A stretch of 64,000 bases of DNA from an uncultured Gammaproteobacteria bacterium. Its GTDB lineage: Bacteria > Pseudomonadota > Gammaproteobacteria > Thiohalobacterales > Thiohalobacteraceae. The notes below the pieces were generated by a model that saw nothing but the letters and a program-made list of their open reading frames with translations, had not been told where the DNA came from and did no database searches. The stretch covers positions 19,130 through 83,129 of the forward strand of contig CAYWKV010000001.1 of NCBI GenBank assembly GCA_964458835.1, read 5' to 3'. Each line of letters opens with the position of its first letter. The stretch's first letter is position 1. Made by a program: the position numbers and the translations under genes. Positions 13,099-55,626 of this stretch are shown piece after piece.

Positions 13099-13845
13099 TC
13101 ACGCCACCTGCAGCGTGGCATCGATGCTTTGGAGAGCATCGTGGTTTGCTGGATCGCTCATACGACCCAGTAACCACTTGACGTTCCGACCCGTCTTTTC
13201 ATCGTAGTCGATGACCTTCACGAACCGTTCGCCCTGTACGAGCGTATCGATCATCACCCGCACGACACCCGGATAATGATCGATCCTCGTCTTGCCTCCT
13301 CTGGGACGACTTGTAAAGCAAGCGCGCGTTCCCATTGGGGGCACCTCGAAACACTGAGCCACATCAGAGACCCGACCGAGTCTCCAGAGCAGATCCAGCG
13401 TCCACCCATTGCTGTCTACTTCCCGTATCTGCACCACCGGCTCCAATCCGAAGCGATAGCCTTGCAGAACGAGGCGCCGTCCGCTGACGCCGGTTTCCAG
13501 AACAACGGCATCACCGACAGGACGAACAAATTGCAGACATCGGGTAATGATCCGCCGTACCTGCAGGGCGAACCAACGCGAGGCAATCGCGATCTGACGC
13601 CAAACCGAACGCCAGTTGCCATCACCTAGTTCCTGCTTCATCACCACGACTTCCGTAAGGACAGGTGGTTGATACGCAGGTACCACAAGCGCAGTGGGCT
13701 TCACCAGACTTCGCTGTTCTTCGATCTGTGCCCGGGCCTGTGCCCAAGTACGGAGCGTGGAGAACAACTCACGAACGACGAATACCACCACACCTGCTGC
13801 CACCAGGACGGCGGCCAACCCAATTTGAAAATGGGTCATGGACAT
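13099..13845 (-). CDS. membrane-anchored hypothetical protein (box-A regulated)
   Basis: One N-terminal TM helix (IGLAAVLVAAGVVVFVV). GGAGGAG SD. Preceded by box-A copy D and leader hairpins. Confidence 0.55.
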   Translation of the reverse strand: MSMTHFQIGLAAVLVAAGVVVFVVRELFSTLRTWAQARAQIEEQRSLVKPTALVVPAYQPPVLTEVVVMKQELGDGNWRSVWRQIAIASRWFALQVRRIITRCLQFVRPVGDAVVLETGVSGRRLVLQGYRFGLEPVVQIREVDSNGWTLDLLWRLGRVSDVAQCFEVPPMGTRACFTSRPRGGKTRIDHYPGVVRVMIDTLVQGERFVKVIDYDEKTGRNVKWLLGRMSDPANHDALQSIDATLQVA

Positions 13846-13928
13846 CTCCTCCAGTAAACGGGCGGAGATACCCCGCGACCGTGCGGGGGAATCTCCCCCA
13901 CAGGGTCGCTTTACCAGGCTGAAGCCTG

Positions 13929-13954
13929 ATCCTGCTGCTCAACGGCCAGCTACC
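13929..13954 (-). promoter_or_regulatory. box A copy D (diverged)
   Basis: The minus strand reads GGTAGCTGGCCGTTGAGCAGCAGGAT. It is followed by hairpin CAGGCTTCAGCCTG and a second GC hairpin, then the SD. Confidence 0.5.
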
Positions 13955-25539: not shown

Positions 25540-27551
25540 AACAGGTCCTGCCCTGCCTGACGCATGATTTGCATAATGGTGGCGGCCTCCGCGAACTCGT
25601 TGAGGCACTGACAGGCCTTGATGACTGTTTCACCGGCCTGTGTTGGACACACGTTATCGGTGCATGTGTAATATCCATATTCATACCGCGTCGCCGGCGT
25701 CGGTTGGCGATTCTCTGAGGTCACACCGGTCGATGCCACACGGTCATCCATAATGGTCTTCCGCACCTTGCAGGCCCGTTCACACGGCTCGACCGTCGGC
25801 AGTATCGAGGGCTCGCCGAACTCCTCCATCCTTGACACCCAGTTCCCCGCCTGATTACGGGTAACATCCCGATAGCCGGTGCCAATATTGGCCGTGCGCG
25901 TGACGACATCGGCGCGGTGCAAGGCGTCTGTGAAGTCATACTGACTGGGTGCAGCGTTGCAGGTGTAGGTGCGGTCTTTACGCCACCAATCTCGCGTCAG
26001 TGACTCCGACATGCCGCCGCCGGTCCAGGTGCGCGTCGATGGTAATGGGACAAGATTCGTCGGCTGATAATTCTGATAAGTACGCACCCCGTCGACTGTC
26101 TCGTTTCTCAGCCTACAAAGTTCGCTTGAGTCATAGCCCTGACAGGTATCGCTGATTGTTTCCGTAAGCTGTAGGTCTTGCAATAAAGGGAACGTAAATG
26201 TGTGCGTCCTATCCACATTGGCATAGTACGAGTCGTCGCCGACATACTCATCGATAAGTCGAATGCCTAGCGTACACTGGGTGTCAGAGCAGCTTCCGCT
26301 CTGTAGAATGACTGCGCATCCACGACGTGAGTAGGTCGACGCTAGGAAGCGCCCTGGATCCGCCTGATAGGCGTCGTATATGACATGCGTTGGCGCGTTC
26401 GGGACATTAATAATGCCCTGATTAGACACTGTCACAGGCTGGTTTGCCCGCAACGTCAATCCCGCCGAGGTGTTTGTGGTCGCATAATTCGGGTTGCACC
26501 ATGGTCCTGTGTAGACCCGGACAGCTGCTGCCGTAGGTCCCGCCGCCTCCACCAGGATCTCGATTTGGTTATACCCAAGCAACGGCATAACACTCGCAGC
26601 GGTGCCCAGGTCGGTGCCGATAGGAGTTGTGAGCAGCTGGGAAGTGACATTCCGCTGAATCGTGCACGAATTCGACGTCGTCGACTCGCTGGTCGCGAGT
26701 CCAGAATTTGTTACGAGCGAATAAACGCTGTTGGGGTCCGCCGACTGGGTGGCGACTTCGGCCGCTACACGCGTACTCATAGTCGCCGGCGCCGACGCGA
26801 TCGACTGTAGATTGGAGTTGCCCGTGCCGCAGGATGCGGTCGACATCCCATAGACTCGCATGCTGGTATTGGTCACTTCATTGCGCGAGACGACATAGCG
26901 TGCATCCAGCGCCAGCACAGGCTGCAAGACACCACTGCTCAGGTCGCCAAGGAGCGTCGGGAGGTTGTTCCAGGCAAGATTGGAGTTGCAGCTGTTATTG
27001 ATGCAGTAACAACCGGAGAGTTGATCCAATGCCACGGAATCGTATCCGATAGCACCCGTCGTGGCATTCCAACGCCAATACCCGCAATTGTTCCAGGTAC
27101 CGACATTACATGTGATAAACCCATTGCCGCAGACACCCGATACCGGCGCTGGCGCCGTCACACTTGAGTCGAAGGTCCCATCAAGATCGAGGTCCGCCGC
27201 GGCAACAACGCTGCTCAGATCGCCGGTAGCCCCTGGCGCGGCAAAAATCTCCAAGAGCACGCCTTCATCAGGACAGTTGACGTGTCCATCAAAGATTTGC
27301 GAGCCGTTTGTCGTGGTCATCTGGGTATTCCCCTGGATGGGGCGCACGGCATTGTTCATCAGTGCGTTCGGGCTGTCATACCGACCACCCAAAGCTGCCG
27401 TGCCTGTGTTCTGGGCATCCGTGATCGGGTTGTAGGTGCCCCAGCTCGCGGGGGGCACTGCCCAGGTCCCCTGCGCCGCCAGTAGCATACCCACGCATAG
27501 GGCAGCTGCCTCACGCAGCTTCTGACGCCAGCGCACGGATGGCCTCCACAT
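25527..27551 (-). CDS. secreted Cys-rich TraN-N-terminal-like protein (second TraN-type gene)
   Basis: Signal peptide. 674 aa with many Cys pairs. It ends ...CQCLNEFAEAATIMQIMRQAGQDLLC. Its stop overlaps a possible traN ATG by 1 nt. Confidence 0.55.
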   Translation of the reverse strand: MWRPSVRWRQKLREAAALCVGMLLAAQGTWAVPPASWGTYNPITDAQNTGTAALGGRYDSPNALMNNAVRPIQGNTQMTTTNGSQIFDGHVNCPDEGVLLEIFAAPGATGDLSSVVAAADLDLDGTFDSSVTAPAPVSGVCGNGFITCNVGTWNNCGYWRWNATTGAIGYDSVALDQLSGCYCINNSCNSNLAWNNLPTLLGDLSSGVLQPVLALDARYVVSRNEVTNTSMRVYGMSTASCGTGNSNLQSIASAPATMSTRVAAEVATQSADPNSVYSLVTNSGLATSESTTSNSCTIQRNVTSQLLTTPIGTDLGTAASVMPLLGYNQIEILVEAAGPTAAAVRVYTGPWCNPNYATTNTSAGLTLRANQPVTVSNQGIINVPNAPTHVIYDAYQADPGRFLASTYSRRGCAVILQSGSCSDTQCTLGIRLIDEYVGDDSYYANVDRTHTFTFPLLQDLQLTETISDTCQGYDSSELCRLRNETVDGVRTYQNYQPTNLVPLPSTRTWTGGGMSESLTRDWWRKDRTYTCNAAPSQYDFTDALHRADVVTRTANIGTGYRDVTRNQAGNWVSRMEEFGEPSILPTVEPCERACKVRKTIMDDRVASTGVTSENRQPTPATRYEYGYYTCTDNVCPTQAGETVIKACQCLNEFAEAATIMQIMRQAGQDLLCTQ

Positions 27552-41387: not shown

Positions 41388-42086
41388 ATGCCGAATACAC
41401 GTCGTCCAATTGACTTTCTGAGCCCTATGACCGACCCATCGACATCCCGGCCAAGAGTCTTCCTCTGCGATGACCATGTCATCATCCGCAAGGGTCTACG
41501 GGATCTTCTGGCACAACAGGATATCCAGGTTGTCGGCGAGGCGGACTCACTGGCAATGGCCTTTGAGCAATGCGAGGACGCAGCCCCAGATGTCGTAATT
41601 CTTGACCTCAACATGGACGAAGATTATGGCATTCACACGTTAGATCGATTCATTGAACGCTTCCCTCGGCTGAGCGTGGTGGTTTTCAGCATGCGCGAGT
41701 CGATCTACACCATCGCCGCGGCATATGATGCCGGCGCGAAGGGGTATGTGACCAAGGCTGCGAGTCCACACGTCCTGCTAACAGCAATACGGGAAGTCGC
41801 TGCAGGCAACACCTTCTTCATGCCTGGGATGGCGGAAAAGATCCTTGTCTACAAGGCCAATGAGCAGAAAGACGTCGACCCGACCAAGGCACTGACCAAA
41901 TCGCAACTCAACGTATTCCGTATGATGGCGGAAGGCAAGTCCTATGATGAAATCGGCGCTATCTTGGGGCAATCAGGCAAGGCGATCGAGAACCGAGCCG
42001 TGCGGATCCGCAAGCGGCTCAATATCGGGCAAGGCGACCTCAAGCTGCTTGCGGTCAAATTCGGCATAATTCGACTCGATTTGTAA
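41388..42086 (+). CDS. NarL/FixJ-type response regulator (REC + LuxR HTH)
   Basis: DD...ILDLNM (Asp)...VFSM...YVTKA receiver residues. C-terminal LTKSQLNVFRMMAEGKSYDEIGAILGQSGKAIENRAVRIRKRL. Confidence 0.85.
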   Translation: MPNTRRPIDFLSPMTDPSTSRPRVFLCDDHVIIRKGLRDLLAQQDIQVVGEADSLAMAFEQCEDAAPDVVILDLNMDEDYGIHTLDRFIERFPRLSVVVFSMRESIYTIAAAYDAGAKGYVTKAASPHVLLTAIREVAAGNTFFMPGMAEKILVYKANEQKDVDPTKALTKSQLNVFRMMAEGKSYDEIGAILGQSGKAIENRAVRIRKRLNIGQGDLKLLAVKFGIIRLDL

Positions 42087-42087
42087 C

Positions 42088-43167
42088 GTGCAACTCACTC
42101 TCCCTAATGTCCCTCATACCAACGCGCACCTCCTTGTCATCGACGACGACATCGGGTTCCGAAGCGTACTGAGTGAGATACTAAAGAATCAGGGATATCA
42201 TGTTGTCACCGCCAAGGACTGTAGTGAGGCCAAGTCGCTTGCGCGCACCCAGCGCTTTGATCTTGCGCTGATGGATATCAACCTGCCTGATGGCTCGGGG
42301 CTCGATCTCTCAAGAGAGCTCTCTACGCTACCAGTGCTTTTCATAACCCAACACGATGAACAGGCTGCCATCGACAAAGCGATCGCTACAGGTAATGCCC
42401 GGCACAACATCATTGCGTATTTAACTAAGCCGCTGGATTTTGCCACTATCGAACCTACGATCCGTGTGAGTGTCGCGCTCGGTCGTGCACTGACGGAGCG
42501 CCTCAATCTGCATAAGACCGCTGCGCATGTCGTAGAACAACAAAAGCGACGCCTTGCCCGAGAAATCCATGACGAGCTTGGCCAGACGCTGGTCGGCGTA
42601 CGCTGGGAGGCAGCGGCCATACAACAGGCATTATCAGGCGATAACGCCCACGCCGATCTGGCCCGTCGTGCCGCCAGTATCCTTGAGTTTGTCAGCGCGT
42701 TGCAGTTAGGTGTCCAGCGCATCATTGAGGATCTGCACCCAGAAGTACTGGAAACACGCGGCTTGGTGGAGGCGCTCACAGCCCTGGTTGACGGTTGGAA
42801 CCAACGGATCCCCGATTGCCAGTTCATGTTCCAGTATGCTGACAAAGCGGCGCTGAACCAATTCGATATCGATTATGCCAGTATCGTTTACCGCATCATT
42901 CAAGAAGGCCTGACGAATATCGTCAAGCATGCGAATGCAAACACCGTAGAGGTCGTTCTTGATGTTATCCCGGGGCACATAACGTCAGTCAGAGGATCCA
43001 TCGTGGATAATGGTGTTGGCTTTGATACGGATGCGGTAAGCCCGCAACGGCATGGTCTGATCGGAATGCGTGAGCGTGTCGCTGCTCTAGCTGGCACGCT
43101 GCACGTCGAGAGTCACCCAGGTCACGGTACCCGGATTGTTTTCACGATACCGGTGCAACCGCAGTGA
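42088..43167 (+). CDS. soluble REC-HisKA_3-HATPase hybrid histidine kinase
   Basis: N-terminal receiver (LALMDINLPDG, YLTKPLD). H-box REIHDELGQ. N-box EGLTNIVKHANA. DNGVGF and GLIGMRERV. No TM or sensor domain. Confidence 0.85.
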   Translation: MQLTLPNVPHTNAHLLVIDDDIGFRSVLSEILKNQGYHVVTAKDCSEAKSLARTQRFDLALMDINLPDGSGLDLSRELSTLPVLFITQHDEQAAIDKAIATGNARHNIIAYLTKPLDFATIEPTIRVSVALGRALTERLNLHKTAAHVVEQQKRRLAREIHDELGQTLVGVRWEAAAIQQALSGDNAHADLARRAASILEFVSALQLGVQRIIEDLHPEVLETRGLVEALTALVDGWNQRIPDCQFMFQYADKAALNQFDIDYASIVYRIIQEGLTNIVKHANANTVEVVLDVIPGHITSVRGSIVDNGVGFDTDAVSPQRHGLIGMRERVAALAGTLHVESHPGHGTRIVFTIPVQPQ

Positions 43168-43180
43168 TTTGCGCGAGTAA

Positions 43181-43558
43181 TCAGCGCTGACTATCTGTGC
43201 CGCTCTCCCCGAGCTCGACCAGTATCCCCCGGATTTCTGTGTCAGTGCGCCTAAAGTTCTCCTGAAGACGCTTACACTGGTCTTCCGCATCCTCGGCAAC
43301 AATCCAACCCGATTCCTTGCAAGCATCGGCAACAATGATCGCACCGTAGGTGTCCATGGAGCCCTTGATCCGGTGAAGGATGTCCCGCCCACTGGCCTGA
43401 TCCCTGTCTGAGACGGACTGTGAAAGAGCCCGTAACAGGTCCTCGACCTGTGCGACCACCTCATCCCATGTAGTGAGTAACATGGCTGGGCTGCACCCCA
43501 TCGAGACCAATGCCTGTAGCTGCGCGCGATTGATCAGAGAGCCATTATGCTCGCCCAT
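43181..43558 (-). CDS. Hpt (histidine phosphotransfer) domain protein
   Basis: ILHRIKGSMDTYGA matches HxxKGSxxxxGA. Confidence 0.75.
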   Translation of the reverse strand: MGEHNGSLINRAQLQALVSMGCSPAMLLTTWDEVVAQVEDLLRALSQSVSDRDQASGRDILHRIKGSMDTYGAIIVADACKESGWIVAEDAEDQCKRLQENFRRTDTEIRGILVELGESGTDSQR

Positions 43559-43923: not shown

Positions 43924-43952
43924 AAAAAAATCCCTCGCCATGCGGCGAGGGA
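43924..43952 (-). terminator. Rho-independent terminator ending the vWA operon
   Basis: The minus strand reads TCCCTCGCC-GCAT-GGCGAGGGA followed by TTTTTTT. It lies 17 nt after the stop at 43969. Confidence 0.7.
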
Positions 43953-43968
43953 TAAGATTTAGCGAGTA

Positions 43969-44403
43969 CTACGCTGCGGATGCCATGACCTCGGTCAGCA
44001 TAACGTCCGCAACATCCAGCCCTTCCGGTGTGGCCAATACCCGTTCAGAGAGCGCGCGTATGGCGTACCTAAGTGTCGCTGCATCGATTGCTGGATCTAT
44101 CGCAGTGACACAAACCCGGAATGAAAACGGCGACTTCTCATCGCGTTCAATCCAACGCCATATTTCTTCGCGAGTCCGCTTGGACGTCCTGTTGTCACAT
44201 ATATCGCGGAATGACGCATAGAGTAATGACTCACGCAAAGTCGCAATCGCGCTATCCGACCACGTATACAGCGCCTCGTGATCAGGATGCGCGATGGGAA
44301 GCTGTGGCTGGATTTGCCACGCCTCCTCTTCTACCCGCTGCCGAGATCGTCTCTCGGCAACTGCCGGCCCAGCCGGCATTTGAAACATCGCCAACTGTTC
44401 CAT
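43969..44403 (-). CDS. hypothetical protein
   Basis: Start set at MEQLAMF after AGAGGGG. Last gene of the vWA operon. Confidence 0.45.
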   Translation of the reverse strand: MEQLAMFQMPAGPAVAERRSRQRVEEEAWQIQPQLPIAHPDHEALYTWSDSAIATLRESLLYASFRDICDNRTSKRTREEIWRWIERDEKSPFSFRVCVTAIDPAIDAATLRYAIRALSERVLATPEGLDVADVMLTEVMASAA

Positions 44404-44490
44404 GAAGTACCCCTCTAAGTTCGAGGGGCGCCTCTGCCCCGCAGGGGCCAGAGACGCACCCCTGCGAGACAACACAAGGACTCTGCGCGA

Positions 44491-46152
44491 TTAGACTGCG
44501 CGGAGAATCCGTGTATGGAGGGCATCCAATACAGCCCTCCCGATATCTTCCGCCCGATGGATCACCTCCCATCCGGGACAGAAACGGCTTACGGCATCGC
44601 ACGCTATGCCAATGCCGTACAGCTCGATCCCGCTTGCCGTGATCATCCTTGAGACCTGGCCTGCGCCGGCGAGGTCGTTCGGATGCCCGTCGGTCAGGAG
44701 CAGGATCAACTTCCGCTCCTCCTTGCGGGCTACGATGCGGTTTCCAGCCTCCCACAGCGCCTCTGCCGTTGGCGTGCCACCGGCGGCTATCAGACTCCCG
44801 ATAGCCCCACGCCGGCCGTTCAGGTCATCGTCGAACGACTTGATGACTTCGACACCACCACCCTCAAAAGCGATCAACTCGGTCTTTACTGTAAGACTCG
44901 CGTTGACCTCGGAAATGGCCACCAGCGCCTGCTTAGCCAGTTCGATCTCCACGCCCTCCATCGATCCTGAGCAATCCAGAACGATGGAGACCGCGGGATA
45001 CGGCAGAGGCCTGCGTACACGCTCACGATAGATCCTATGCTCGCCAGCGAGAGCCCTTGCCAACCTACGGCCATCAATACGCCCCGACTCTGAGACAACG
45101 GATTTCCGACGAGTCCGCGTTTGATATTCGGATACGATCCTGCGTTGCAGCTGCCGAATCTCCCCGGAGACAGACGCCTTCAGGCGCGCATACTCGGCGT
45201 CATCGTCAGCAGCACGGCTGATCCGATCGCTTGAGCGCCCACCAACAAAGCTCGAGGTGTTCGCGCGCTCGGTCGCATCGTGCGCCACCTGGGAACGATC
45301 AAAGATCGGTGTTTGATCAAATCCCGTATCCGCCAGGATCGCAGCAGCACCGGCCGAGACCGATCCCGCCCCCGTCGATTCCGAAGTCCCTTGGGATTCC
45401 GGACCCGTACTCGACTGCGTCGCGGGTGAATCGGTACCACTACCCTGGCTGGCCTCTTGCTGCACAGGCGATTCCGGTTCTGCCGCGTCGTCGTCTGGCT
45501 CGTCATCCTCGTCTTCGAGGGACTCAACCAACGTGACGACAGCTTGTGCCAGACGCCAGGCATCCTGGGTTTTGCTCGCTGAGTACAGATGCGTTGATAA
45601 CAATGCATCGAGCCGCAACAGGCCCTTATCCGTTATCAGGTCACGTAGCGCTGTGCGTGCCGCCTCAAAGGTGTTCTTCACATCCTGATTCAGCACATTC
45701 ATCCGCCCCCATGAATCGACGTACCCCGTGAGAATGCGAGCCGGCGTCAGGCCAGTAAATTCCGCTGTGCCTTGACGCTGTTCCACCAATTCAACCGAGC
45801 GGGCCAGCGTTTCGCGACAGCCGAGATAGTCATCGCCCTCGCGACGCTCGACGACCGTATCCTCAACGGCGTTCCAGATCCCTTGGGTCAGCGGCCTGAG
45901 CGCATCCGGCACTTTGTGCAGCATCTGCCGGTGATACTCGAAATCCGAGTACAGGATATGTGCACATTCGTGGTCGATATCGCCAACAATGATATCCACA
46001 TCATCGTCATCGGCATCGATTGCCAACGGGTTTGAGTAGATGGTCATCCCATCCGTCCTCGGGGGACCCTGGAATACCAGTTCAATACCCTTCTGGCGCG
46101 TCACAGCCCGGCATATCGCAGGGAGTGAACTCTTGAGATTTCTCGCGCGCAT
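44491..46152 (-). CDS. CobT-like vWA protein with N-terminal HExxH motif and acidic linker
   Basis: DIDHECAHILYSD (HExxH). Long D/E/S/T-rich linker. MIDAS VLDCSGSM...LLTDGHPND. Start at MRARNLK after GGGAG. Confidence 0.8.
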   Translation of the reverse strand: MRARNLKSSLPAICRAVTRQKGIELVFQGPPRTDGMTIYSNPLAIDADDDDVDIIVGDIDHECAHILYSDFEYHRQMLHKVPDALRPLTQGIWNAVEDTVVERREGDDYLGCRETLARSVELVEQRQGTAEFTGLTPARILTGYVDSWGRMNVLNQDVKNTFEAARTALRDLITDKGLLRLDALLSTHLYSASKTQDAWRLAQAVVTLVESLEDEDDEPDDDAAEPESPVQQEASQGSGTDSPATQSSTGPESQGTSESTGAGSVSAGAAAILADTGFDQTPIFDRSQVAHDATERANTSSFVGGRSSDRISRAADDDAEYARLKASVSGEIRQLQRRIVSEYQTRTRRKSVVSESGRIDGRRLARALAGEHRIYRERVRRPLPYPAVSIVLDCSGSMEGVEIELAKQALVAISEVNASLTVKTELIAFEGGGVEVIKSFDDDLNGRRGAIGSLIAAGGTPTAEALWEAGNRIVARKEERKLILLLTDGHPNDLAGAGQVSRMITASGIELYGIGIACDAVSRFCPGWEVIHRAEDIGRAVLDALHTRILRAV

Positions 46153-46209
46153 GTATACTCCCACGCACGCCCCCCGTTCGGAGGCGTGCTTGATTACAAG
46201 ACACCCTGA

Positions 46210-46245
46210 ACGGCGGGATTCCTGCTGCTTAAAGGCCAGCTACCT
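46210..46245 (-). promoter_or_regulatory. box A copy A
   Basis: The minus strand reads AGGTAGCTGGCCTTTAAGCAGCAGGAATCCCGCCGT, 58 nt upstream of the vWA start. Confidence 0.6.
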
Positions 46246-46341
46246 ATCTGCCCTATAAGGGCGTGAAGCCTTTTCGCACAACCCTATTGGATTGTCTGAA
46301 AAGGCGCCTCCCTGAGGAGGCGCAAAAATCAGCCAGTCACG

Positions 46342-46716
46342 TCACCAGGCGTATGCACTCTGTGATCGATATTCGACCACCAAAGGTCTGCGCTGCACGT
46401 GCGACCAAAACACCTCGCGACTCATCGTCCGAGGTGCCTGGTCCATTCGCTGGTCCGCGAATTTCTTCCGAAGTTGCAGCCATGCCCGCCCTGCACTACC
46501 ACCTGAGGCATCCAGCAACTCAATCCACGATGCTTTGGTTACACCGTCATACCCATAGGCAAAGCTACCAGACCTCGGTAATACCCAGAGCGTAGTTGCT
46601 CCGTTAGCACTGCCTATACCTGCAACCGCATCTACTGCACTTGATGCCGGATACCGGGCTACCTCACCATCCATAGAAGACTTCGGGCGTCGACTCGTAC
46701 TGGGAGTCGTTGCCAC
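46342..46716 (-). CDS. hypothetical protein ending ...AYAW
   Basis: 124-aa ORF. Start uncertain (GTG 46716 or ATG 46674). Overlaps the end of the upstream gene. Confidence 0.4.
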   Translation of the reverse strand: MATTPSTSRRPKSSMDGEVARYPASSAVDAVAGIGSANGATTLWVLPRSGSFAYGYDGVTKASWIELLDASGGSAGRAWLQLRKKFADQRMDQAPRTMSREVFWSHVQRRPLVVEYRSQSAYAW

Positions 46717-47659
46717 CGGGATAACTTTCTTCCACGGTACTGTTGACCACAGTCTCCTGGATCACTTCCCTCGGCAACAACTCTGCCTGGGGTTCGTCGA
46801 CGGCGAGGGATGCCTCGGGCTGCGGAAAGAGACCATCACCCTGGGCGACCTTAGCCGAGAGCTGAATCTCATTCGCGAGCACGCCGAATACACCGTCCAG
46901 CGCCATGATCTGCGCCGGCGTGTAATCATCGTTACGGATCCCTTGTGGTATATCCGTGAGTACTGCGGCAAGTTCCGCAGCGATTCTGGACAGCCGTGGT
47001 TCAACGTAGGCCAACCCAACCAGCTTGCCCCGGATCTCTTCTGCAACGCGACGTTTCGCTGTCATGCGCTGACACGTAAGTCCACCTTCAGCACGCTGTG
47101 ACACCTCGTGCAGCGCCTGCGCATAGACCCCTTCACGAACAATTTCGAGTTCGTCGGGTTCCAGCTCGACCAGTCGCGGGCGGAGATAGGAAAACTGGAT
47201 TTGTGTATCCAGATAATCCCTCGCCGGCTGAGCATCTCGGATCGCGTTGATAAATGCCTCGCAATTGTCGACGCCCTCCTCCTCACAGGTTTTCCGCAGC
47301 GTCGCGATGTGTGTCTCACAGGCTGTCGCATACCCCTCGAGGAAGGCCTGTTTGGCCTCATAAAACTCCGTACGGGCCTTCTCGATCTGTTCGAGGATCG
47401 CGTCCTTCTTTGACGGATCGATGATCCAGCCAAAGAAGTTGTCACGTGTCGCATGACGCAACAGATAGTCCCTGACCCGCTTCTTATACATCGCCAGGGG
47501 GTTGAGGCTCTCCGTCGAGATCACCGCCTGGCGCAGCAGCGGCTTCATGGCCGCAGGCAGCTTATCCAGTCCAAGGATCTCCTTGATCTTCCCTTCGCCG
47601 GCGAGACGGGTTGCCGATACGAGAGATACATGTGGATTAAACACATAGATCTTGCTCAT
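46664..47659 (-). CDS. hypothetical protein (DUF3150-like by recollection), ending ...FYGW
   Basis: Start at MSKIYVF after GGAG. Long helical protein of the kind found next to CobS/CobT-like pairs on mobile elements. Family name not verified. Confidence 0.5.
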   Translation of the reverse strand: MSKIYVFNPHVSLVSATRLAGEGKIKEILGLDKLPAAMKPLLRQAVISTESLNPLAMYKKRVRDYLLRHATRDNFFGWIIDPSKKDAILEQIEKARTEFYEAKQAFLEGYATACETHIATLRKTCEEEGVDNCEAFINAIRDAQPARDYLDTQIQFSYLRPRLVELEPDELEIVREGVYAQALHEVSQRAEGGLTCQRMTAKRRVAEEIRGKLVGLAYVEPRLSRIAAELAAVLTDIPQGIRNDDYTPAQIMALDGVFGVLANEIQLSAKVAQGDGLFPQPEASLAVDEPQAELLPREVIQETVVNSTVEESYPGGNDSQYESTPEVFYGW

Positions 47660-47777
47660 GTTGCATCTCCAGCCCCTTCCCGAGGGGGCACATTGATTGC
47701 ACACCTCAGCAGGCGGGATTGCATACATGCCCCAGGCGGGACATGTATGCCCCGCTGGGGTGAACGGATGCGTTACG

Positions 47778-48407
47778 CTACCAGGCGTAGTGCGTATCCG
47801 TGCTGGTGACCCTGGCCGCTTGGCCTTCGACCACCCAGTGTGTTTCCACAGCTTGTTTCAGCCTGGTCTCCCATAGCGGAAACCAGGCAAATTGCTCAAC
47901 ATCAAGAGGCAGAGAAACACGCCCCGTCAGATCGAGCTCGTCGGAATCAGTCACCATCAAACGGCTCTGACTCTTTCCCGCGAGGATGGAGAGAAACAGT
48001 CGAACAGGGAAGTCCACTGTTTCTTTCCCGGTCACCATAACGCCTTGACCCGTGCCCTTTGCAGACAGCCAACCATCGCGGCTTGCGCCCTGCTCGAGAA
48101 CAGCAATACGTTCCCGAGCGTTCAGGGAGTCCAGGAACGACCGTGGCGGATATCCGAACCAGGCAAATGTGTCGGCCGAACGTAGTTCGACATGGCCGCC
48201 CAACTCCCCTTCCACCCAGTGGATCTCCATGTAGGCGGGATTACCCGCGTCCACCAAGATCTGTTGGGCCAGGTCAGCTGCCGCACAGAGATCGGCGGTA
48301 CTGACCGGCTGAGTTGCCTGCCACGCGAGATAATAGGGCGTCGCCGGCACTGCATCGGACGTGACATCGTCCGGCTTGTCATCCGTCTCCATGAGCTCAT
48401 CACTCAT
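47778..48407 (-). CDS. acidic hypothetical protein ending ...HYAW
   Basis: 209-aa ORF starting 4 nt after the AAA+ gene stop. Confidence 0.5.
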   Translation of the reverse strand: MSDELMETDDKPDDVTSDAVPATPYYLAWQATQPVSTADLCAAADLAQQILVDAGNPAYMEIHWVEGELGGHVELRSADTFAWFGYPPRSFLDSLNARERIAVLEQGASRDGWLSAKGTGQGVMVTGKETVDFPVRLFLSILAGKSQSRLMVTDSDELDLTGRVSLPLDVEQFAWFPLWETRLKQAVETHWVVEGQAARVTSTDTHYAW

Positions 48408-48410
48408 GGA

Positions 48411-49400
48411 TCATTCACCGAGTCGTACGCCGAACAGCTTGTGGAAAACCTCGCCCACAGGCACTGCCTCCGCCGGAGCCAGCAAGTCGTAGTACGCATC
48501 GGCGAACGCTTCACGGATATCCTTCAGAAGCAGGGTCGATTTCGCCCACTCTTTCAGATTACGTACCGTAAACGGCAGCGATACATTCCCCTCATCGACC
48601 AGGGTACGGCACGCCATCCCCAATTCGACCATAAGCCTCGACGCCGGCCTGTTAGCTTCGGTGAGCGTGACCGCACCGTTCAGTTGAGGGAACGCGAGCG
48701 TGAGCAGCTTCTCCTCAAGGTCAGGTGGCAGGTACCGCATCTTAAGACCGGCGAAGCGGGACCGTGTGGCTCCGTTCATCACCTGGGAGCCCACGTAAAT
48801 ACCGCTCTCGTCCATCGAACCTGGCGTATTGGCCGTTGCCACGAAGGTGACGTGATCAGCCGCGCAGATTCGTTCACCTGTTTCGGGAATGATGAGTTCC
48901 CGTACTTCCAACAGGCGGTTGAATTGCGCGGCTATGCCCGCAGGTGCCATGTTGAACTCGTCGAGCACAACAATCGCCATGGGGTCCCGCATGGCGCGGA
49001 CCAAATGGCCATACCGGAACCGGGTTCTAAGGCCTGAAGCATCGTGCTGGGCTGCTACGCCCTCCTCGCGGGTTTCTCCAACCAGCTCGAAGGTGCCCAG
49101 CAACTCACGCAGTGATGTCTCTTCACCAAAGGACACCACGTGACAGGACCGCCGCAGACGTGCAGCAATCTGCACGAAATACTCGGTCTTGCCACAGCCA
49201 GACGGCCCCCAACACCAGATTGGTTTCTGCTCGCCGATGTTTTTGAGCGCACGCCGCAAGGGCGTGTACTCGAACACGAACACTGGATCGGGAGCAACAG
49301 CGGTGTTGTTCCCGACCGGAACCACCTTGTCCAGGGGCACCTTCCGCGTGTCGGTCTTGGGGGACTCAACACCAAATGCATCGAACAGGCTCGTCGCCAT
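48411..49400 (-). CDS. CobS/MoxR-like AAA+ ATPase
   Basis: Walker A WGPSGCGKTEY, Walker B IVVLDEFN. Start at MATSLF after GGAGG. Confidence 0.85.
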   Translation of the reverse strand: MATSLFDAFGVESPKTDTRKVPLDKVVPVGNNTAVAPDPVFVFEYTPLRRALKNIGEQKPIWCWGPSGCGKTEYFVQIAARLRRSCHVVSFGEETSLRELLGTFELVGETREEGVAAQHDASGLRTRFRYGHLVRAMRDPMAIVVLDEFNMAPAGIAAQFNRLLEVRELIIPETGERICAADHVTFVATANTPGSMDESGIYVGSQVMNGATRSRFAGLKMRYLPPDLEEKLLTLAFPQLNGAVTLTEANRPASRLMVELGMACRTLVDEGNVSLPFTVRNLKEWAKSTLLLKDIREAFADAYYDLLAPAEAVPVGEVFHKLFGVRLGE

Positions 49401-49469
49401 GTTGCGCCTCCAAATTAGGCGCACACTCCCCCCGTATGGGAAGTGTGCAAGTACCACACACATCCCGAT

Positions 49470-49505
49470 ACGGCGGGAATCCTGCTGCTTAAAGGCCAGC
49501 TACCT
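49470..49505 (-). promoter_or_regulatory. box A copy B
   Basis: The minus strand reads AGGTAGCTGGCCTTTAAGCAGCAGGATTCCCGCCGT, 35/36 identical to copy A and 70 nt upstream of the AAA+ start. Confidence 0.6.
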
Positions 49506-49619: not shown

Positions 49620-50675
49620 CTACCAGTTGTAGACGCCTTCTTTGGGAAGCGGCTCTGCCTCCCGTGCAGTGGCTGCGAACAGGTCGTTACGCGCTTCCTG
49701 CTCACGCTCGGCCACACGTCCCGATGCGCTGGATTCATAGATACGAATCTGCTCGTCACCCGGTGGCCGCCTATACCGCTCAATGGTCTCCTGGTCCAGC
49801 GTAGGCAGTCGTTCGCCTACCAGCGCTTTCCAGTCAACACTGCCTTGCCGCGTGAATCGCACGACGCGCAGGTCGCAGGCCTCAGCGTGGAGAAAATCGC
49901 CCATCAGGGCAACCAACCCTTGGTCCTTCTCCTGCAGGCGCCGTTCGATGTTTGCCACTTGCGACTTCGCATTCTCGAGGAACACCGCAAGACGCTTGCG
50001 CTCATCCGCGACAGCTTGCCACTGCGCAAGGATGTCGCCCTCAGGGACGTAAATATCCCGTTCGGGATCCTTCTTGGGTTCCTTACCCGTTTGGATCGAC
50101 ACCCAAAAGGCTTCCGATTCGGGAATCAATTGCGAACGGATGAACTCCTCATCGCGTTCGATCTTGAACTCCACGTAGATCGGTTCGCCTTCATCCACAT
50201 CGAGGCATAGAAAGCAGAGGTACCCCTGCTCTGACCCCGTGACGTAGATTTGATGCTGCACCTGAGGCCAGTACAGCTGGTAGGCCTCAGAAGCACGCAG
50301 GTTCGCCAGCACATCACGGTACGTGTTGACATGTGGCGCCTTCATTTCGACGGGTTCTCCACCTGTCGTTATGCCGTCCAGCGAGGCCCGAAACAGCGGG
50401 TTCTCGCTCGATTCGCAACAGACCGGCAGAAGTATGTCGTTATGCCGTTGTTCGACTCGCTGCCGTACCCAGTCTTCGAGTCGCACGCCCCGCCTGACAT
50501 TGGGGTTGCGCGACAGGTCATCCGGTACGGCCTTGCCCATCTTCTCCGCCCATAACCGCCAACGCGTCTTGTGCGGGCACCGTCCCAGGATCGTTGCGAC
50601 TTCGCTCGCCGAGATCCCATTACGGCGCCACGCATACCACGCCGCCGATCGCTGAGAAAGATCAACGATGCGCAT
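49620..50675 (-). CDS. YqaJ-type (lambda Exo-like) recombination exonuclease with C-terminal extension ending ...VYNW
   Basis: MRIVDLSQRSAAWYAWRRNGISASEVATILG is the YqaJ N-terminus. Start after AAAGGAGAGG. Confidence 0.8.
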   Translation of the reverse strand: MRIVDLSQRSAAWYAWRRNGISASEVATILGRCPHKTRWRLWAEKMGKAVPDDLSRNPNVRRGVRLEDWVRQRVEQRHNDILLPVCCESSENPLFRASLDGITTGGEPVEMKAPHVNTYRDVLANLRASEAYQLYWPQVQHQIYVTGSEQGYLCFLCLDVDEGEPIYVEFKIERDEEFIRSQLIPESEAFWVSIQTGKEPKKDPERDIYVPEGDILAQWQAVADERKRLAVFLENAKSQVANIERRLQEKDQGLVALMGDFLHAEACDLRVVRFTRQGSVDWKALVGERLPTLDQETIERYRRPPGDEQIRIYESSASGRVAEREQEARNDLFAATAREAEPLPKEGVYNW

Positions 50676-50733
50676 AGCCCTCTCCTTTGACCTCCGATGA
50701 GGGACATACCCCGAAGGGTACGCCCCTTCCGGG

Positions 50734-51657
50734 TTAGTCGGTGGCTGCTTTCGCCGCCCCACGGATCTTTTCGTGCGCCCAGACCAGCTCGCTACCCTGA
50801 AGCCGTTCGTTCACGTAATCACGTGCGGCATTCCAGGCGCCGGTTTGGGACGCACGGACAAGGACCTTGTCCATCCATTCGCTGACGAACGGGTGGATGG
50901 CAGTGTCCGGGGGGATCACCTCACCGCTTTCGATCGAGGCCTCCACGTCTCCGCGATCTCGCAGGCCTTCACCGGCGTCTTCGTTGAGATATTGGATGGC
51001 CCGATGTAAACGGACATCGGTTTTCGGCCAGGTCTTCGAGGCACGTTTGATGACCGTCTTCTTAACCATCTCCTCGAACCAGTCGATCCAGGGGCCTTTC
51101 TCATTCTCGAAGGCCTTGGACTTATCTCTGACTTTGTGAATCTCCTGCAGGGACATCGCCTCGACGAGAATTTCGCCATCCACGGTCTTGGCCTTGCAGT
51201 ACGCGCCCAAGAGATCACCGCGGTTAGGATCGAACGGGTCGTAGTGATGAACCGGCTCCTGGGTGGTACCCCGCCATTCGAACTTGTCTGCCTTGTAGAC
51301 GAGTTCGGCCTTTGCCCACAACACCGAGCCGGTGTCAGTTGCGATTCGGATCAGGCCACGGTAGCTGATGTCCACGATGACCTTGTTATCCCGTGGCACC
51401 AAAAACGCGTACTGCGTTGCCGGATTCAGGCTCAGCCCGATTGCCGCGACATTGACCATCGCCGTTCGCATTGAGAACGGATTACCGTTCGCTACCTTTG
51501 TCAGGTAGTCATTCGACGCACAGGCCTGCATGGCAAACATTGCCTCGGCCTGCCAGTCGAGCCCGGTGCGTTCGGCTGCGCGTACGAACTCAACCTTGGC
51601 TTGGTTGATTGCTTGTTCGTACGCCGTCGACACCGGTTGACGCGCTTGCTGACTCAT
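50734..51657 (-). CDS. recT: RecT/Bet-type single-strand annealing protein
   Basis: ...NVAAIGLSLNPATQYAFLVPRDNKVIVDISYRGLIRIA... Start at MSQQARQ after TAGGAGG. Confidence 0.85.
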   Translation of the reverse strand: MSQQARQPVSTAYEQAINQAKVEFVRAAERTGLDWQAEAMFAMQACASNDYLTKVANGNPFSMRTAMVNVAAIGLSLNPATQYAFLVPRDNKVIVDISYRGLIRIATDTGSVLWAKAELVYKADKFEWRGTTQEPVHHYDPFDPNRGDLLGAYCKAKTVDGEILVEAMSLQEIHKVRDKSKAFENEKGPWIDWFEEMVKKTVIKRASKTWPKTDVRLHRAIQYLNEDAGEGLRDRGDVEASIESGEVIPPDTAIHPFVSEWMDKVLVRASQTGAWNAARDYVNERLQGSELVWAHEKIRGAAKAATD

Positions 51658-51784
51658 TGCGCCTCCTATAAGGGGAGGCACGATAGTCCCCCAGTGGGGT
51701 CACTATCGCACCCCCATCTGGGTTGAAATGCTTCTGATCGTCACTGTGCTACCACATCAAAATGGCACTCACGAGCGCAGTGAC

Positions 51785-52228
51785 TCAATCAAAAGGGATG
51801 TCGTCGTCGAACCCTTCATCGAAAGCGGAATGATCGCCTGTCGGTAAACTGCCATCGGCCGCGGGTCGTGCCGCCTGCGATGTTGCCGACTGCGGCCGCC
51901 CGCCCAGCATCTGCATATCGGTCGCCACGATCTCCGTGGTATACCGATCTTGCCCCTGCTTGTCCTGCCATTTCCGGGTTCGGAGACTGCCCTCGATGTA
52001 GACCTGTGCGCCCTTCTTCAGGTACTCACCGACGATCTCGGCCAGTCGCTGGTAGAAGACAACGCTGTGCCACTCCGTACGCTCCTTGGGTGCGCCACTT
52101 TGCTTGTCCTTCCACTGATCGCTGGTCGCGAGCGTGACATTCGCTACCGCGCCACCGCTGGGCATGTAGCGTACCTCAGGGTCTTTACCCAGGTGCCCCA
52201 CAAGAATGACCTTGTTTACACCACGCAT
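51785..52228 (-). CDS. ssb: single-stranded DNA-binding protein
   Basis: [36 protein letters not shown]...TEWHSVVFY is an OB fold. The acidic tail ends DDDIPFD. Confidence 0.95.
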
Positions 52229-52238
52229 GTTGTTCTCC

Positions 52239-52658
52239 TCATGCTTCAATGACCGCCGGCAGATCGGCGGAACCATTCATGGCTTCGAGAAAAGGAAACA
52301 ATTCCTCTTCGTCGGGCCGCTCCATAAACTCCACGACAGGCACCGTGTCTTCCACATCAAGGTGAGACAGCGCTGCCCTCGAATCCACGTCAGGTGAAGT
52401 CGCCTGCAGGGATGCTTCGACACGTGAGAGTTTTTCCCGCTGATCACCCAGGCCACGGGTCTGGAAATCCACCCAGTTGGCATAGCGTTCCGGTGTCAGC
52501 GGGATACATTTCGGCATTCGACTTCGCCGATGGACATCGGATGTGAAAACCAGCATCCGATCGATGTGGGTGCCTGGTTCCTCTGTCTTGCGGACATACA
52601 GATCCAGGCGCAGAGATCGACCTCGTATCGAGATGATCCGGCGTGCGACAACATCCAT
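52239..52658 (-). CDS. hypothetical protein with acidic C-terminus, first gene of the ssb-recT-exo operon
   Basis: Start set at MDVVARR after GGAG, downstream of box A copy C. The longer track ORF (to 52934) would contain the box. Confidence 0.45.
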
Positions 52659-52713
52659 GCGATGCTCCACACACGCCCCTCCGACACGGGGCGTTATGAG
52701 TAAACGCCCGTGT

Positions 52714-52747
52714 ACGGCGGGTCCTGCTGCTTGAAGGCCAGCTACCT
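52714..52747 (-). promoter_or_regulatory. box A copy C
   Basis: The minus strand reads AGGTAGCTGGCCTTCAAGCAGCAGGACCCGCCGT, 56 nt upstream of the 52658 start. Confidence 0.55.
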
Positions 52748-54142: not shown

Positions 54143-54634
54143 TCAAAAAGCGAACTCACCAGCCACTTTCAGGTCCGGCATTCGAAGATTGAACAACCTC
54201 CAAATGATCGCAGCCCGCATAACGGCGGCCTGTGTGACCACGAGCGTGTCCAGATTCTCTAGGCGCCGACCCTGCGCGCGCATCTCTGCGGCATACGCCA
54301 CGACCTGGCGCGTTGCAGCCAGAACCGCATCTTTAATGTCGGCGTCCACAAACACGACGTCCTTCTCGTCGTTGCCTTTCACCATGTCCACGTCGAGCAC
54401 CTGATCGCGCCACGAACGGTCCTGCAGGAAATCCACGACGGCTTCCGCGACCCAGCGTGATTTGCCCTTGAGTCCATAGCCGTCACGGACTACTGCGGCG
54501 TGCAGCGCCGACTTCATGCGCATGGGCAATCGGTAGGTGACGGGCTTCTTCTTGGGTGCGCGGACCATCTTTTTCGCGGCTTTTGGGGCAGCCATACGCC
54601 GGCCAACCCCGGGCGCTGAGAGTTTCTTGGGCAT
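54143..54634 (-). CDS. basic small protein, possible RHH-type DNA-binding protein
   Basis: Its ATG overlaps the upstream parB stop by 1 nt. Lys-rich N-terminus, then VTYRLPMRMKSALHAAV (strand-helix). Confidence 0.4.
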   Translation of the reverse strand: MPKKLSAPGVGRRMAAPKAAKKMVRAPKKKPVTYRLPMRMKSALHAAVVRDGYGLKGKSRWVAEAVVDFLQDRSWRDQVLDVDMVKGNDEKDVVFVDADIKDAVLAATRQVVAYAAEMRAQGRRLENLDTLVVTQAAVMRAAIIWRLFNLRMPDLKVAGEFAF

Positions 54635-55626
54635 CAACCTTCTGCCTCTTCCACGACCTTGAGGAACTCGCTCCAGGCCTGCGTCACCGCCTTGAGATCC
54701 GACCACTCCACGCTCTTGAATAGCGCGTTGAAACGCGTCTCGCCCAAATAGCTTTTCGCCAACGCCTGGATCACTGCTGGATGCGTGGTACTTCCAAGGG
54801 ACACTTTAACGGTGGGCCTGCCGCGTGAGGCCGGTGCACTGGTGGTGCGTGGCGCTGCCGAAGCGTCGCTGGCTTTTGAGGCGAGTTTTGCCTTGATAGC
54901 CTCAGCGTCCAATCCCGCCAGCTCCGCGGCCTGGCTCAAGGTAGTCACCCAGCCAGTCTCGATCGCGTGATGGAGTGGTGCTCCACCTCGAACGACTGCA
55001 AGGTACTTGAAGGCCTGCCGACGGTTCACACCCACCAAGGTGCTGACTTCCTCCGCCGATAGTCCTTCACCCTCCCCCGCCTCCTCGCGGTGTAGCTGAT
55101 CGAGCTTGGTGAGTGCCATGACGCGTTCGGAAAGACTCAGGTCTTCACGGGCGAGGTTCTCGGCGAGTTGGGCGGCGTAGATCCGTTTGCGGGACTTCGA
55201 ACGTGGCCGTACCGAGGCGCGGATGTCACTGCGCATCAGTAGGAGATGCGCCAATACGCGTCGTTCCCCTTGGGCGATCACATACCGGTCACCGGCCGGA
55301 TACACGGTTATCGGCTGCAGTAGACCATGCTCCTCGATCGATGCCGCCAACCCTTGCAAGTCATCGAAGGCTTCCTGGGCTTCCGGATTATCGGCGATGA
55401 CATCGAGCTCGCCGGCCGCGTGCGCGCGTATCCGCTCGACGGTCAGCCCAAGCGCAGCCAGGCGTGTCCGGGGCTGCTCCGGATCGGCATCGATGAGGTT
55501 CAGGCTCAGCGTTTGTAAGCGGCCTTCGTGTACCTGATGCCCTTCCTGGGCGACTTTGACGGTTGCCTTGAACGCCGGCGACCGAGGGAGTTGTCGCAGC
55601 TGCTCTCGTTTTCCAAGCTTACCCAT
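54634..55626 (-). CDS. parB: ParB/KorB-like partition protein
   Basis: GLLQPITVYPAGDRYVIAQGERRVLA ParB N-domain, followed by an HTH. Confidence 0.8.
   Translation of the reverse strand: MGKLGKREQLRQLPRSPAFKATVKVAQEGHQVHEGRLQTLSLNLIDADPEQPRTRLAALGLTVERIRAHAAGELDVIADNPEAQEAFDDLQGLAASIEEHGLLQPITVYPAGDRYVIAQGERRVLAHLLLMRSDIRASVRPRSKSRKRIYAAQLAENLAREDLSLSERVMALTKLDQLHREEAGEGEGLSAEEVSTLVGVNRRQAFKYLAVVRGGAPLHHAIETGWVTTLSQAAELAGLDAEAIKAKLASKASDASAAPRTTSAPASRGRPTVKVSLGSTTHPAVIQALAKSYLGETRFNALFKSVEWSDLKAVTQAWSEFLKVVEEAEG

Follow-up and report, generated by a model that had tools for sequence, protein, structure and literature searches.

In the 64-kb window analysed here (the whole stretch of DNA), a set of six genes built around a CobS-like AAA+ ATPase and a CobT-like protein that has a vWA domain (von Willebrand factor type A) appears to be the plasmid's version of the host-defence-evasion locus of MOBH elements (vcrx087-095 in IncC plasmids, s089-s073 in the SXT/R391 elements) and not a cobalt chelatase, a reading to which we give a probability of roughly 0.6. 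The set is a divergent member of a known, partly understood locus, not a new kind of system; the homology, synteny, motif conservation and C-terminal tails described below were all observed in this analysis. The window is a conjugative plasmid encoding a Rep3 initiator, ParA, two ParB-like genes, a MOBH TraI, TraD and an F-type type IV secretion system (T4SS; TraC, E, K, B, U, N, F, H, G and TrbC). A megablast search of PLSDB with the 5.6-kb region yielded no nucleotide-level match, and close relatives of the plasmid were found solely in raw-read assemblies.

All six genes that a preliminary description of this DNA had drawn up, in two operons headed by a repeated box (box-A) and followed by a strong terminator, are present where it had placed them and are read from the minus strand; start codons were refined via gene calls on relatives of 96% and 82% identity. 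The six genes and the operon upstream of them are as follows:

48411-49400, minus strand: CobS-like AAA+ ATPase, 329 residues (Pfam AAA_5, E = 2.8e-18)
47778-48407, minus strand: acidic protein of 209 residues, ending ...THYAW (relatives by BLASTP and hhalign)
46664-47659, minus strand: DUF3150 protein, 331 residues, ending ...EVFYGW (Pfam DUF3150, E = 3.3e-18)
46342-46716, minus strand: small open reading frame (ORF) of 124 residues, likelier 110 residues at 46342-46674, ending ...SAYAW
44491-46152, minus strand: CobT-like protein, 553 residues (Pfam CobT, VWA_2 and CobT_C)
43969-44403, minus strand: protein of 144 residues, p144 family (alignment of a conserved unannotated family)
49620-52658, minus strand: upstream operon orf139-ssb-bet-exo (Pfam SSB, RecT and YqaJ; gene calls on the related locus L086)
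52239-52658, minus strand: orf139
51785-52228, minus strand: ssb (Pfam SSB)
50734-51657, minus strand: bet/RecT (Pfam RecT)
49620-50675, minus strand: exo/YqaJ, ending ...GVYNW (Pfam YqaJ)

The ATPase carries both Walker motifs:

49185-49208, minus strand: Walker A, GPSGCGKT
48954-48971, minus strand: Walker B, VVLDEF

It is 29% identical to Vcrx089 of IncC (E = 3e-23), 28% identical to the SXT-type protein (E = 3e-22) and 24% identical to a genuine CobS, that of Rhizobium, with which it is colinear over its full length (BLASTP E = 3e-19); among PDB sequences it matched CobS (9ujv, E = 1.9e-15), Midasin and NorQ. Since the ATPase is nearly as close to genuine CobS as to Vcrx089, its orthology with the latter is argued mainly from synteny. 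For this comparison, 80 genomic and 69 viral loci were cut into stop-to-stop segments and searched with iterated profiles built from the window proteins. In a total of 86 sequences (the 80 genomic loci together with the window and five earlier ones) we counted a CobT-like gene in 83, DUF3150 in 80, the ATPase in 75, exo in 62, bet in 60, ssb in 56 and p144 in 54. Co-occurrence outside this replicon, on which the preliminary description had made its proposal depend, is wide: 80 of the 83 loci with a CobT-like gene also have DUF3150, and 75 have the ATPase. The usual order is ssb-bet-exo-AAA-X-DUF3150-CobT-p144, found in SXT-type, Methylomonas, Acidiferrobacteraceae and other loci; the IncC order is permuted and annotated as AAA, hypothetical, ssb, bet, exo, DUF3150, VWA. 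By tblastn, about 3,000 plasmids, for the most part IncC and phage-plasmids, were seen to encode relatives of the vWA protein, with a full-length relative in a Proteus SXT/R391-type element. The linkage to ssb-bet-exo, DUF3150 and the vWA gene on a MOBH conjugative backbone is present, and the adjacency of CobS/CobT-annotated genes to ssb-bet-exo in SXT/R391 and IncA/C, which the preliminary description had mentioned, proved correct. Genomes of Desulfovibrio, Mailhella and Lentisphaera, like two viral lineages, carry the AAA-DUF3150-CobT triad by itself; most viral loci hold the adjacent AAA/CobT pair only, without DUF3150.

The IncC operon vcrx089-093 has been named 'hde' (host defence evasion), and ssb, bet and exo were reported to repair CRISPR-Cas3 breaks (Roy et al. 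2020). Expressed in the recipient, vcrx089 (AAA_5) and vcrx090 give resistance to type I restriction (PMC7498323), and deletion of vcrx089-90 made restriction by EcoBI 424-fold and by EcoKI 906-fold higher (Dimitriu and colleagues, PMC11602122). The two genes are a two-gene system in AntiDefenseFinder (PMC11724313), and their mechanism was called novel and under study in the 2020 hde paper. In SXT, SetCD activates the operon that begins with s089 (PMC4344509). The label 'uncharacterised', given to the set before, is therefore apt in part only, as vcrx089/vcrx090 of IncC are published anti-restriction factors.

The window shares with the IncC hde region (vcrx087-vcrx095 of pVCR94/pKAZ3) and the SXT/R391 region (s089, ssb, bet, exo ... 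s070-s073) the MOBH type and the F-type backbone, an AAA_5 ATPase gene followed by that of a tail-bearing partner, ssb-bet-exo, DUF3150 and the CobT-like HExxH-vWA protein (p144 in the SXT type), as well as a single orientation, a transfer-linked promoter and a structured leader before the ATPase gene. Protein identity, however, is only 24-29%, and the window has three separate box-A operons in place of the one long operon of IncC. Unlike in IncC and SXT, the partner protein belongs to a WGR-associated family, though without the WGR domain; there is an additional tail-bearing orphan of 110 residues, and the tails in the window all are Y-x-W, whereas those of SXT end in F.

The CobT-like protein matched the Pfam models for the CobT N-domain (E = 4.7e-12), VWA_2 and CobT_C (E = 3.1e-10), and a PDB profile search matched it to CobT (9uka, E = 1.4e-31). 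The motifs that had been noted before (GPSGCGKT in the ATPase; DIDHECAH, an acidic linker and DCSGSM...TDG in the CobT-like protein) are all there, the latter protein combining an HExxH-bearing N-domain with an intact MIDAS (adhesion site dependent on metal ions):

45958-45972, minus strand: HECAH (in DIDHECAH), N-domain
45847-45873, minus strand: NAVEDTVVE, N-domain, downstream of HECAH
44959-44976, minus strand: DCSGSM, MIDAS of the vWA domain
44767-44781, minus strand: GGTPT, MIDAS of the vWA domain
44683-44697, minus strand: TDG (LTDG), MIDAS of the vWA domain

Its linker is acidic, with 17 Asp/Glu against 2 Lys/Arg across about 85 residues, and predicted to be disordered (AlphaFold2 predicted local distance difference test, pLDDT, <50 at residues 218-266 in the 553-residue numbering, 222-270 of the modelled ORF). 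Alignment and modelling used the 557-residue ORF translation, from which the 553-residue numbering is obtained by subtracting 4. In 19 homologues that were found without motif bias, among them the SXT and IncC proteins (24-26% identical), H65, E66, H69, N98, E101, D102 and E106 (557-residue numbering; for the HExxH and downstream acidic residues, H61, E62, H65, E97, D98 and E102 in the 553-residue numbering) as well as the MIDAS residues are invariant. A motif-blind phmmer search with the N-domain alone against 1.84 billion cluster representatives gave 705 relatives at E <= 1e-3; among the best 150 of these 705, HExxH is present in 145 and HExxxH in the other five, [ND]xxEDxxxE follows about 25 residues downstream in 134, and DxSxS is found in 131. 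This search and the plasmid tblastn are free of retrieval bias for HExxH; the CobT-like segments of viral contigs, with HExxH in 66 of 73, were retrieved by a pattern including the motif. At the level of sequence, a site conserved to this extent (HExxH...NxxEDxxxE) argues strongly for function, and although the N-domain does belong to the CobT family, the refuting case named in the preliminary description, an ordinary CobT fold whose HExxH is not kept among orthologues, does not apply. In the chelatase CobT of Rhizobium (L003:2762-4663, beside cobS), the one genuine CobT compared, S-M-A-L-R aligns at the position of HExxH and the downstream motif is partly kept. Judged from this single protein, chelatase CobT looks like a pseudo-peptidase version of the mobile-element protein.

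These comparisons bear on the proposal that the pair is a true chelatase motor, which would join the host CobN and boost cobalamin synthesis. Both proteins belong to the CobS and CobT families, and they share with CobNST (9ujv/9uka) the domain order, that is, the N-domain, acidic linker, shaft-aligned region and vWA/MIDAS of the CobT-like protein. Against the NCBIfam equivalogs, however, the ATPase scores 50.6 bits where the CobS cut-off (TIGR01650) is 558.55, and the CobT-like protein 47.6 bits where the CobT cut-off (TIGR01651) is 759.05, about one-tenth of these cut-offs or less. CobN is expected to have about 1,200 residues or more; the longest ORF of the window, with 1039 residues, is TraG, so that no CobN-sized ORF is present in the window. 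No cobalamin genes were seen there either, the neighbours being ssb, bet, exo, par and tra. Moreover, the aerobic CobN pathway is missing from Vibrio, E. coli and Proteus, hosts in which SXT and IncC elements do well. HExxH is kept in the mobile-element forms and missing from the genuine CobT compared, and the obligatory partners in the module are DUF3150, as a third component, and the recombination genes, not cob genes. Hijacking of host CobN by viral CobST has been proposed in an archaeal-virus survey, where it is stated for archaeal and bacterial viruses and where a cyanophage cobT is said to have been 'mistakenly annotated as a peptidase' (PMC8651126), yet the IncC ATPase has an anti-restriction phenotype (PMC7498323). 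On scores, HExxH conservation, partners and this phenotype we rejected a chelatase function, which we find hardly credible, in agreement with the preliminary description, which had thought it unlikely.

The two hallmarks of gluzincin sequences, HExxH and a downstream glutamate, are both present in the N-domain and lie in predicted helices. The N-domain model (pLDDT 89, predicted template modelling score 0.86) consists of one helix, a small sheet and a helical bundle, a predicted layout like that described for CobT_N, and its Foldseek matches include many CobT/VWFA proteins of phages and haloarchaeal viruses (template modelling score 0.55-0.71, E down to 1e-7); CobT structures were not among its PDB matches. 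Chelatase CobT_N has been stated in a preprint to resemble an M48C peptidase domain, and the CobT shaft to insert into the CobS ring (bioRxiv 10.64898/2026.07.21.739949). In the window protein, the stretch preceding the vWA domain is basic, conserved and alignable with the CobT shaft segment, and the full-length model gave vWA matches only, the best being the Midasin MIDAS and the NorD vWA domain of NorQ-NorD (E about 1e-8). A metalloprotease effector on the vWA subunit had been suggested for this set; conservation of HExxH speaks for it, whereas Foldseek gave no significant peptidase match, and the activity stays conjectural. The idea also has a precedent in a jumbo-phage survey, which described a MoxR-vWA pair whose vWA protein carries an N-terminal metallopeptidase and guessed at virion processing (PMC7824862). 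In the literature searched we found nothing joining CobS/CobT with anti-restriction or metallopeptidase, and DUF3150 is named in a single paper.

The remaining proteins of the set are less familiar. In relatives the ATPase is followed by WGR-domain proteins, and the 209-residue protein is a homologue of their C-terminal domain (BLASTP 40%, E = 2e-38; 29%, E = 1e-19). Pfam WGR was matched in those relatives (L004:6022-6879, L005:7810-8709) and not in the 209-residue protein, from which the domain, a DNA-break or nucleic-acid-binding module in PARP-type proteins, has been lost. Aligned by hhalign with the Vcrx090 family of SXT/IncC, the 209-residue/WGR family reached a probability of 91-96% (E from 1e-6 to 4e-9). 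DUF3150 consists of a folded domain of about 280 residues, a variable, gap-rich acidic linker and a C-terminal tail; a profile search against PDB sequences found no relative. The ATG of the 110-residue gene overlaps the DUF3150 stop codon. This small ORF is intact in L086 and, in L157, 63% identical and gapless with its tail kept, where neighbouring genes are about 82% identical; it is lineage-specific, with one other homologue cluster among 5.8 billion proteins. A chance ORF is ruled out, since in a diverged relative the frame remains open and the tail is retained, and we read the small ORF from these alignments as a real gene, as had been claimed, with the likelier start giving 110 in place of 124 residues. 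The 144-residue family has the core W-S-D...L-R-E...D-x-R...W-I...P-F-S-F..C...D-P..L-R and regularly lies 3' of the CobT-like gene, SXT-type loci included; it has neither a Pfam match nor, by profile search, a PDB match.

A feature that we observed for the first time is a C-terminal tail shared by Exo, the protein after the ATPase, DUF3150 and the 110-residue orphan. All four of these neighbouring window proteins end in Tyr-x-Trp, an ending with one other occurrence among 538 open segments of the window:

49620-49631, minus strand: tail codons of Exo (VYNW)
47778-47789, minus strand: tail codons of the 209-residue protein (HYAW)
46664-46675, minus strand: tail codons of DUF3150 (FYGW)
46342-46353, minus strand: tail codons of the 110-residue protein (AYAW)

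Across the related loci compared (L001, L002, L004-L085), the ending [YFW]x[WFY] is found in 57 of 63 Exo and 60 of 80 DUF3150 proteins, the listed DUF3150 exceptions still ending in W or F (GLW, AWF, WFF), and in none of the SSB, Bet, ATPase, CobT-like and p144 proteins. The gene after the ATPase ends in NYYF (SXT), DFYF, GWFF, PYAW or EDHFF (Vcrx090 of IncC). In 29 CobT clusters, the tail-bearing proteins within a locus mostly agree in flavour (YxW; FYF/YYF; FWF/CWF/YWF; AWF; AYF/SYF/CYF; GLW), which changes from lineage to lineage. Placed after a variable acidic linker, as in DUF3150, the tail has the architecture of a tethering peptide; its co-variation within an element suggests that the receptor is encoded by the element, and from the triad-only loci the candidates would be the ATPase, the adaptor or DUF3150 itself.

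The tails might instead be other signals, for translocation through the T4SS coupling protein, for mimicry of the SSB tip (D-I-P-F) that would recruit host SSB-interacting enzymes, or for binding to the sliding clamp. An acidic linker followed by hydrophobic-x-Phe-COOH does resemble the SSB tip, endings such as S-L-G-L-W recall clamp motifs like QLGLF, and the element encodes a T4SS. We nevertheless consider such signals distinctly unlikely, as the DUF3150 tail persists in triad-only loci and in viral contigs without ssb or visible T4SS genes, and as a flavour that co-varies within the element would be expected of a receptor encoded by the element more than of a conserved one in the host.

The genes of the set and of the upstream operon follow copies of box-A, the 25-nucleotide sequence GGTAGCTGGCCTTTAAGCAGCAGGA, which occurs four times in the window at <=2 mismatches, each time on the minus strand (chance expectation 0), and which is followed by leaders that fold into strong hairpins between the box and the start codon (z from -2.4 to -6.0):

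52722-52746, minus strand: box-A with 1 mismatch, before orf139-ssb-bet-exo
49480-49504, minus strand: exact box-A, before the cobS-like operon (leader hairpin z = -6.0)
46220-46244, minus strand: exact box-A, before the cobT-like operon (leader hairpin z = -3.7)
13930-13954, minus strand: box-A with 2 mismatches, before an orphan gene at 13099-13845
46150-46225, 49398-49485, 52655-52727 and 13850-13935, minus strand: structured leaders
43930-43953, minus strand: intrinsic terminator of the second operon, a 10-bp stem with 7 GC pairs, then TTTTTTT
46299-46323, minus strand: GC-rich hairpin and T-run 3' of the 110-residue gene, found by eye in the sequence and absent from the terminator-scan list

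Both L086 and L157 have kept the hairpin at 46299-46323, which lies between the two operons of the six-gene set and likely is the end of the first. With a common box and structured leaders, the three consecutive operons (orf139-ssb-bet-exo; cobS-like-209-residue-DUF3150-110-residue; cobT-like-144-residue) are probably switched on together, and the remote fourth copy, before a 248-residue protein without a Pfam match, suggests a small regulon extending past them. The leader hairpins include G-rich runs close to the start codon; a comparable structure sequestering the ribosome-binding site precedes vcrx089 (Roy et al. 2020). The box before the cobT-like operon is conserved in L086, L087 and L157, and box-A is restricted to these closest relatives, not being found in distant loci. 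Rfam, at gathering thresholds over the whole window, gave no match, which places box-A and its leaders outside known RNA families. The invariant core of the box, CTGGCC-N5-GCAGCA, has the GG-N10-GC spacing of sigma-54 -24/-12 promoters, and among 20 further window ORFs scanned there was neither a sigma-54 activator nor one like FlhDC, AcaCD or SetCD.

How the set might work can be sketched from its relatives. The ATPase, an AAA_5 protein with Walker A and B, and its vWA partner with a complete MIDAS form a MoxR-vWA pair, and the Midasin/NorD match of the vWA domain, the shaft-aligned segment and the colinearity with CobS make a ring-plus-adaptor complex the most economical inference: the CobS-like ring would engage the CobT-like adaptor as in the solved CobS-CobT complex. 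The same plan of an AAA_5 ring with a MIDAS vWA adaptor is known from NorQ-NorD, CbbQ-CbbO, RavA-ViaA and Rea1/Midasin, which, by contrast, mature specific host enzymes or ribosomes and are unlinked to recombination genes or conjugation. The vWA subunits of these pairs are not known to contain a conserved HExxH domain. Unlike the chelatase CobT compared, the adaptor has retained a site of gluzincin type (HExxH...NxxEDxxxE) beside an intact MIDAS, and it could make the pair an ATP-driven remodelling machine, possibly a proteolytic one. The tails of Exo, the 209-residue protein, DUF3150 and the 110-residue protein may tether them to one element-encoded hub site, as adaptors or clients, in the way SspB docks on ClpX. 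FtsH and ClpX-SspB are alike in principle only, combining an AAA+ ring with a zinc HExxH peptidase, or partners made of a folded domain, a flexible linker and a docking or degron peptide; they are not homologous to the window set, in which a separate vWA adaptor bears the peptidase-like domain and is expected to have its shaft in the ring pore. By analogy with the IncC homologues, the output would be that newly entered DNA is guarded from type I (and some type II) restriction, with type I restriction complexes as a putative target, alongside double-strand-break repair by Bet, Exo and SSB.

The machine might also serve as a chaperone or maturation factor for the recombination or transfer proteins of the element itself, for instance by folding, assembling or proteolytically processing Exo and its partners, with any effect on restriction being secondary. 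MoxR-vWA pairs generally are maturation factors, as the NorQ-NorD and Midasin matches recall, a jumbo-phage MoxR-vWA-peptidase pair has been predicted to process virion proteins (PMC7824862), and Exo bears the shared tail. Yet the triad stands without exo, bet and ssb in several genomes and viral contigs, and IncC transfer to a restricting recipient, with a CRISPR target absent, was unaffected by deletion of ssb-exo and affected by deletion of vcrx089-90; we take a maturation role to be unlikely. The cobS-cobT clusters of phages and archaeal viruses, for which virion processing or B12 boosting has been proposed, share with the window the N-domain fold and HExxH, the window pair matches PHROG 249 and 1576 of the phage 'porphyrin biosynthesis/CobT' families, and some of the clusters carry the AAA-DUF3150-CobT triad with an F-ending DUF3150.

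A plasmid-borne conflict or defence system of the vWA-MoxR type that comparative genomics has predicted, directed for example against phages or competitors, as the preliminary description had suggested, seems very unlikely to us. Conflict systems with nucleoside-triphosphate-dependent vWA-MoxR components have been described (PMC7159879), but PADLOC gave no model match for the six proteins, which places the set outside the catalogued defence systems. The module belongs to the backbone, tied to ssb-bet-exo and the common box, and is not the cargo of a variable hotspot, and it is common in lytic-type viral contigs. The homologues, moreover, act for the incoming element in the recipient (PMC7498323).

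Extending the reading as a host-defence-evasion locus, one may tentatively suppose that mobile-element CobS/CobT-like pairs are split AAA+ metalloprotease/remodelling hubs, to which a co-evolving tail 'plug' would tether Exo, the Vcrx090/WGR-family protein, DUF3150 and orphans; the hub, and not the ATPase alone, would then disarm type I restriction complexes, and chelatase CobT would be a pseudo-peptidase descendant. We regard this extension as conceivable, though on balance doubtful.

It should also be noted that several points speak against assigning the window set to the host-defence-evasion locus, or against parts of the proposed working. The anti-restriction phenotype is known for the IncC homologues (pVCR94, pKAZ3) alone, so that the function of the window set would follow by analogy, and the literature yielded no role assigned to the DUF3150 or CobT-like genes. 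In transposon sequencing of IncC, vcrx089-093 alone were reported as depleted, and vcrx094/095 were not discussed; SXT deletions of bet, exo, s067, s068 and s070 lowered transfer by at most 10-fold in the laboratory (PMC2791158). The pairwise BLAST of the 209-residue protein with Vcrx090 is not significant (E = 0.43), and by profile it is a remote relative. The putative peptidase fold of the N-domain is argued from the motifs and from the preprint statement on a homologue, and Foldseek of the N-domain model against the PDB gave no significant match (best E = 1.4). The 80 genomic and 69 viral loci were fetched with peptide patterns including HExxH and are biased in this respect. As for the tails, those of IncC mix W and F endings, their concordance is partly due to shared ancestry, and the receptor is putative.

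As vehicles of multidrug resistance, IncC plasmids and SXT/R391 elements are of major importance, and the comparison bears on how vcrx089-090 defeat restriction. The roughly 150 related loci compared suggest that the ATPase should be studied together with the CobT-like adaptor, with its zinc-peptidase signature and MIDAS, and with DUF3150 as its natural partners, and that the C-terminal tail common to several proteins of the locus offers a simple handle in truncation and pull-down work. Thousands of plasmids and phages carry the labels 'cobS/cobT, porphyrin or cobalamin biosynthesis', which probably mislead.

Some minor observations concern other genes of the plasmid. Its SSB (51785-52228) ends in ...DDDIPFD, one residue past the canonical DDDIPF tip, the free Phe carboxylate of which is normally required for partner binding; SXT-type SSBs have the C-terminus ...PEPDF. 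Within the F-type T4SS cluster lies an ORF of 674 residues (25527-27551) without a Pfam match. A small protein encoded between the two ParB-like genes (54143-54706) has the C-terminus ...GEFAF, which could be one more aromatic tail or could be coincidental. In the interval that separates the module from the traI operon (41388-43558) we found a LuxR-type response regulator, a hybrid receiver-histidine kinase and a small histidine phosphotransfer (Hpt)-like protein; these signalling genes are kept in the relative L086 and could feed the regulation of transfer.

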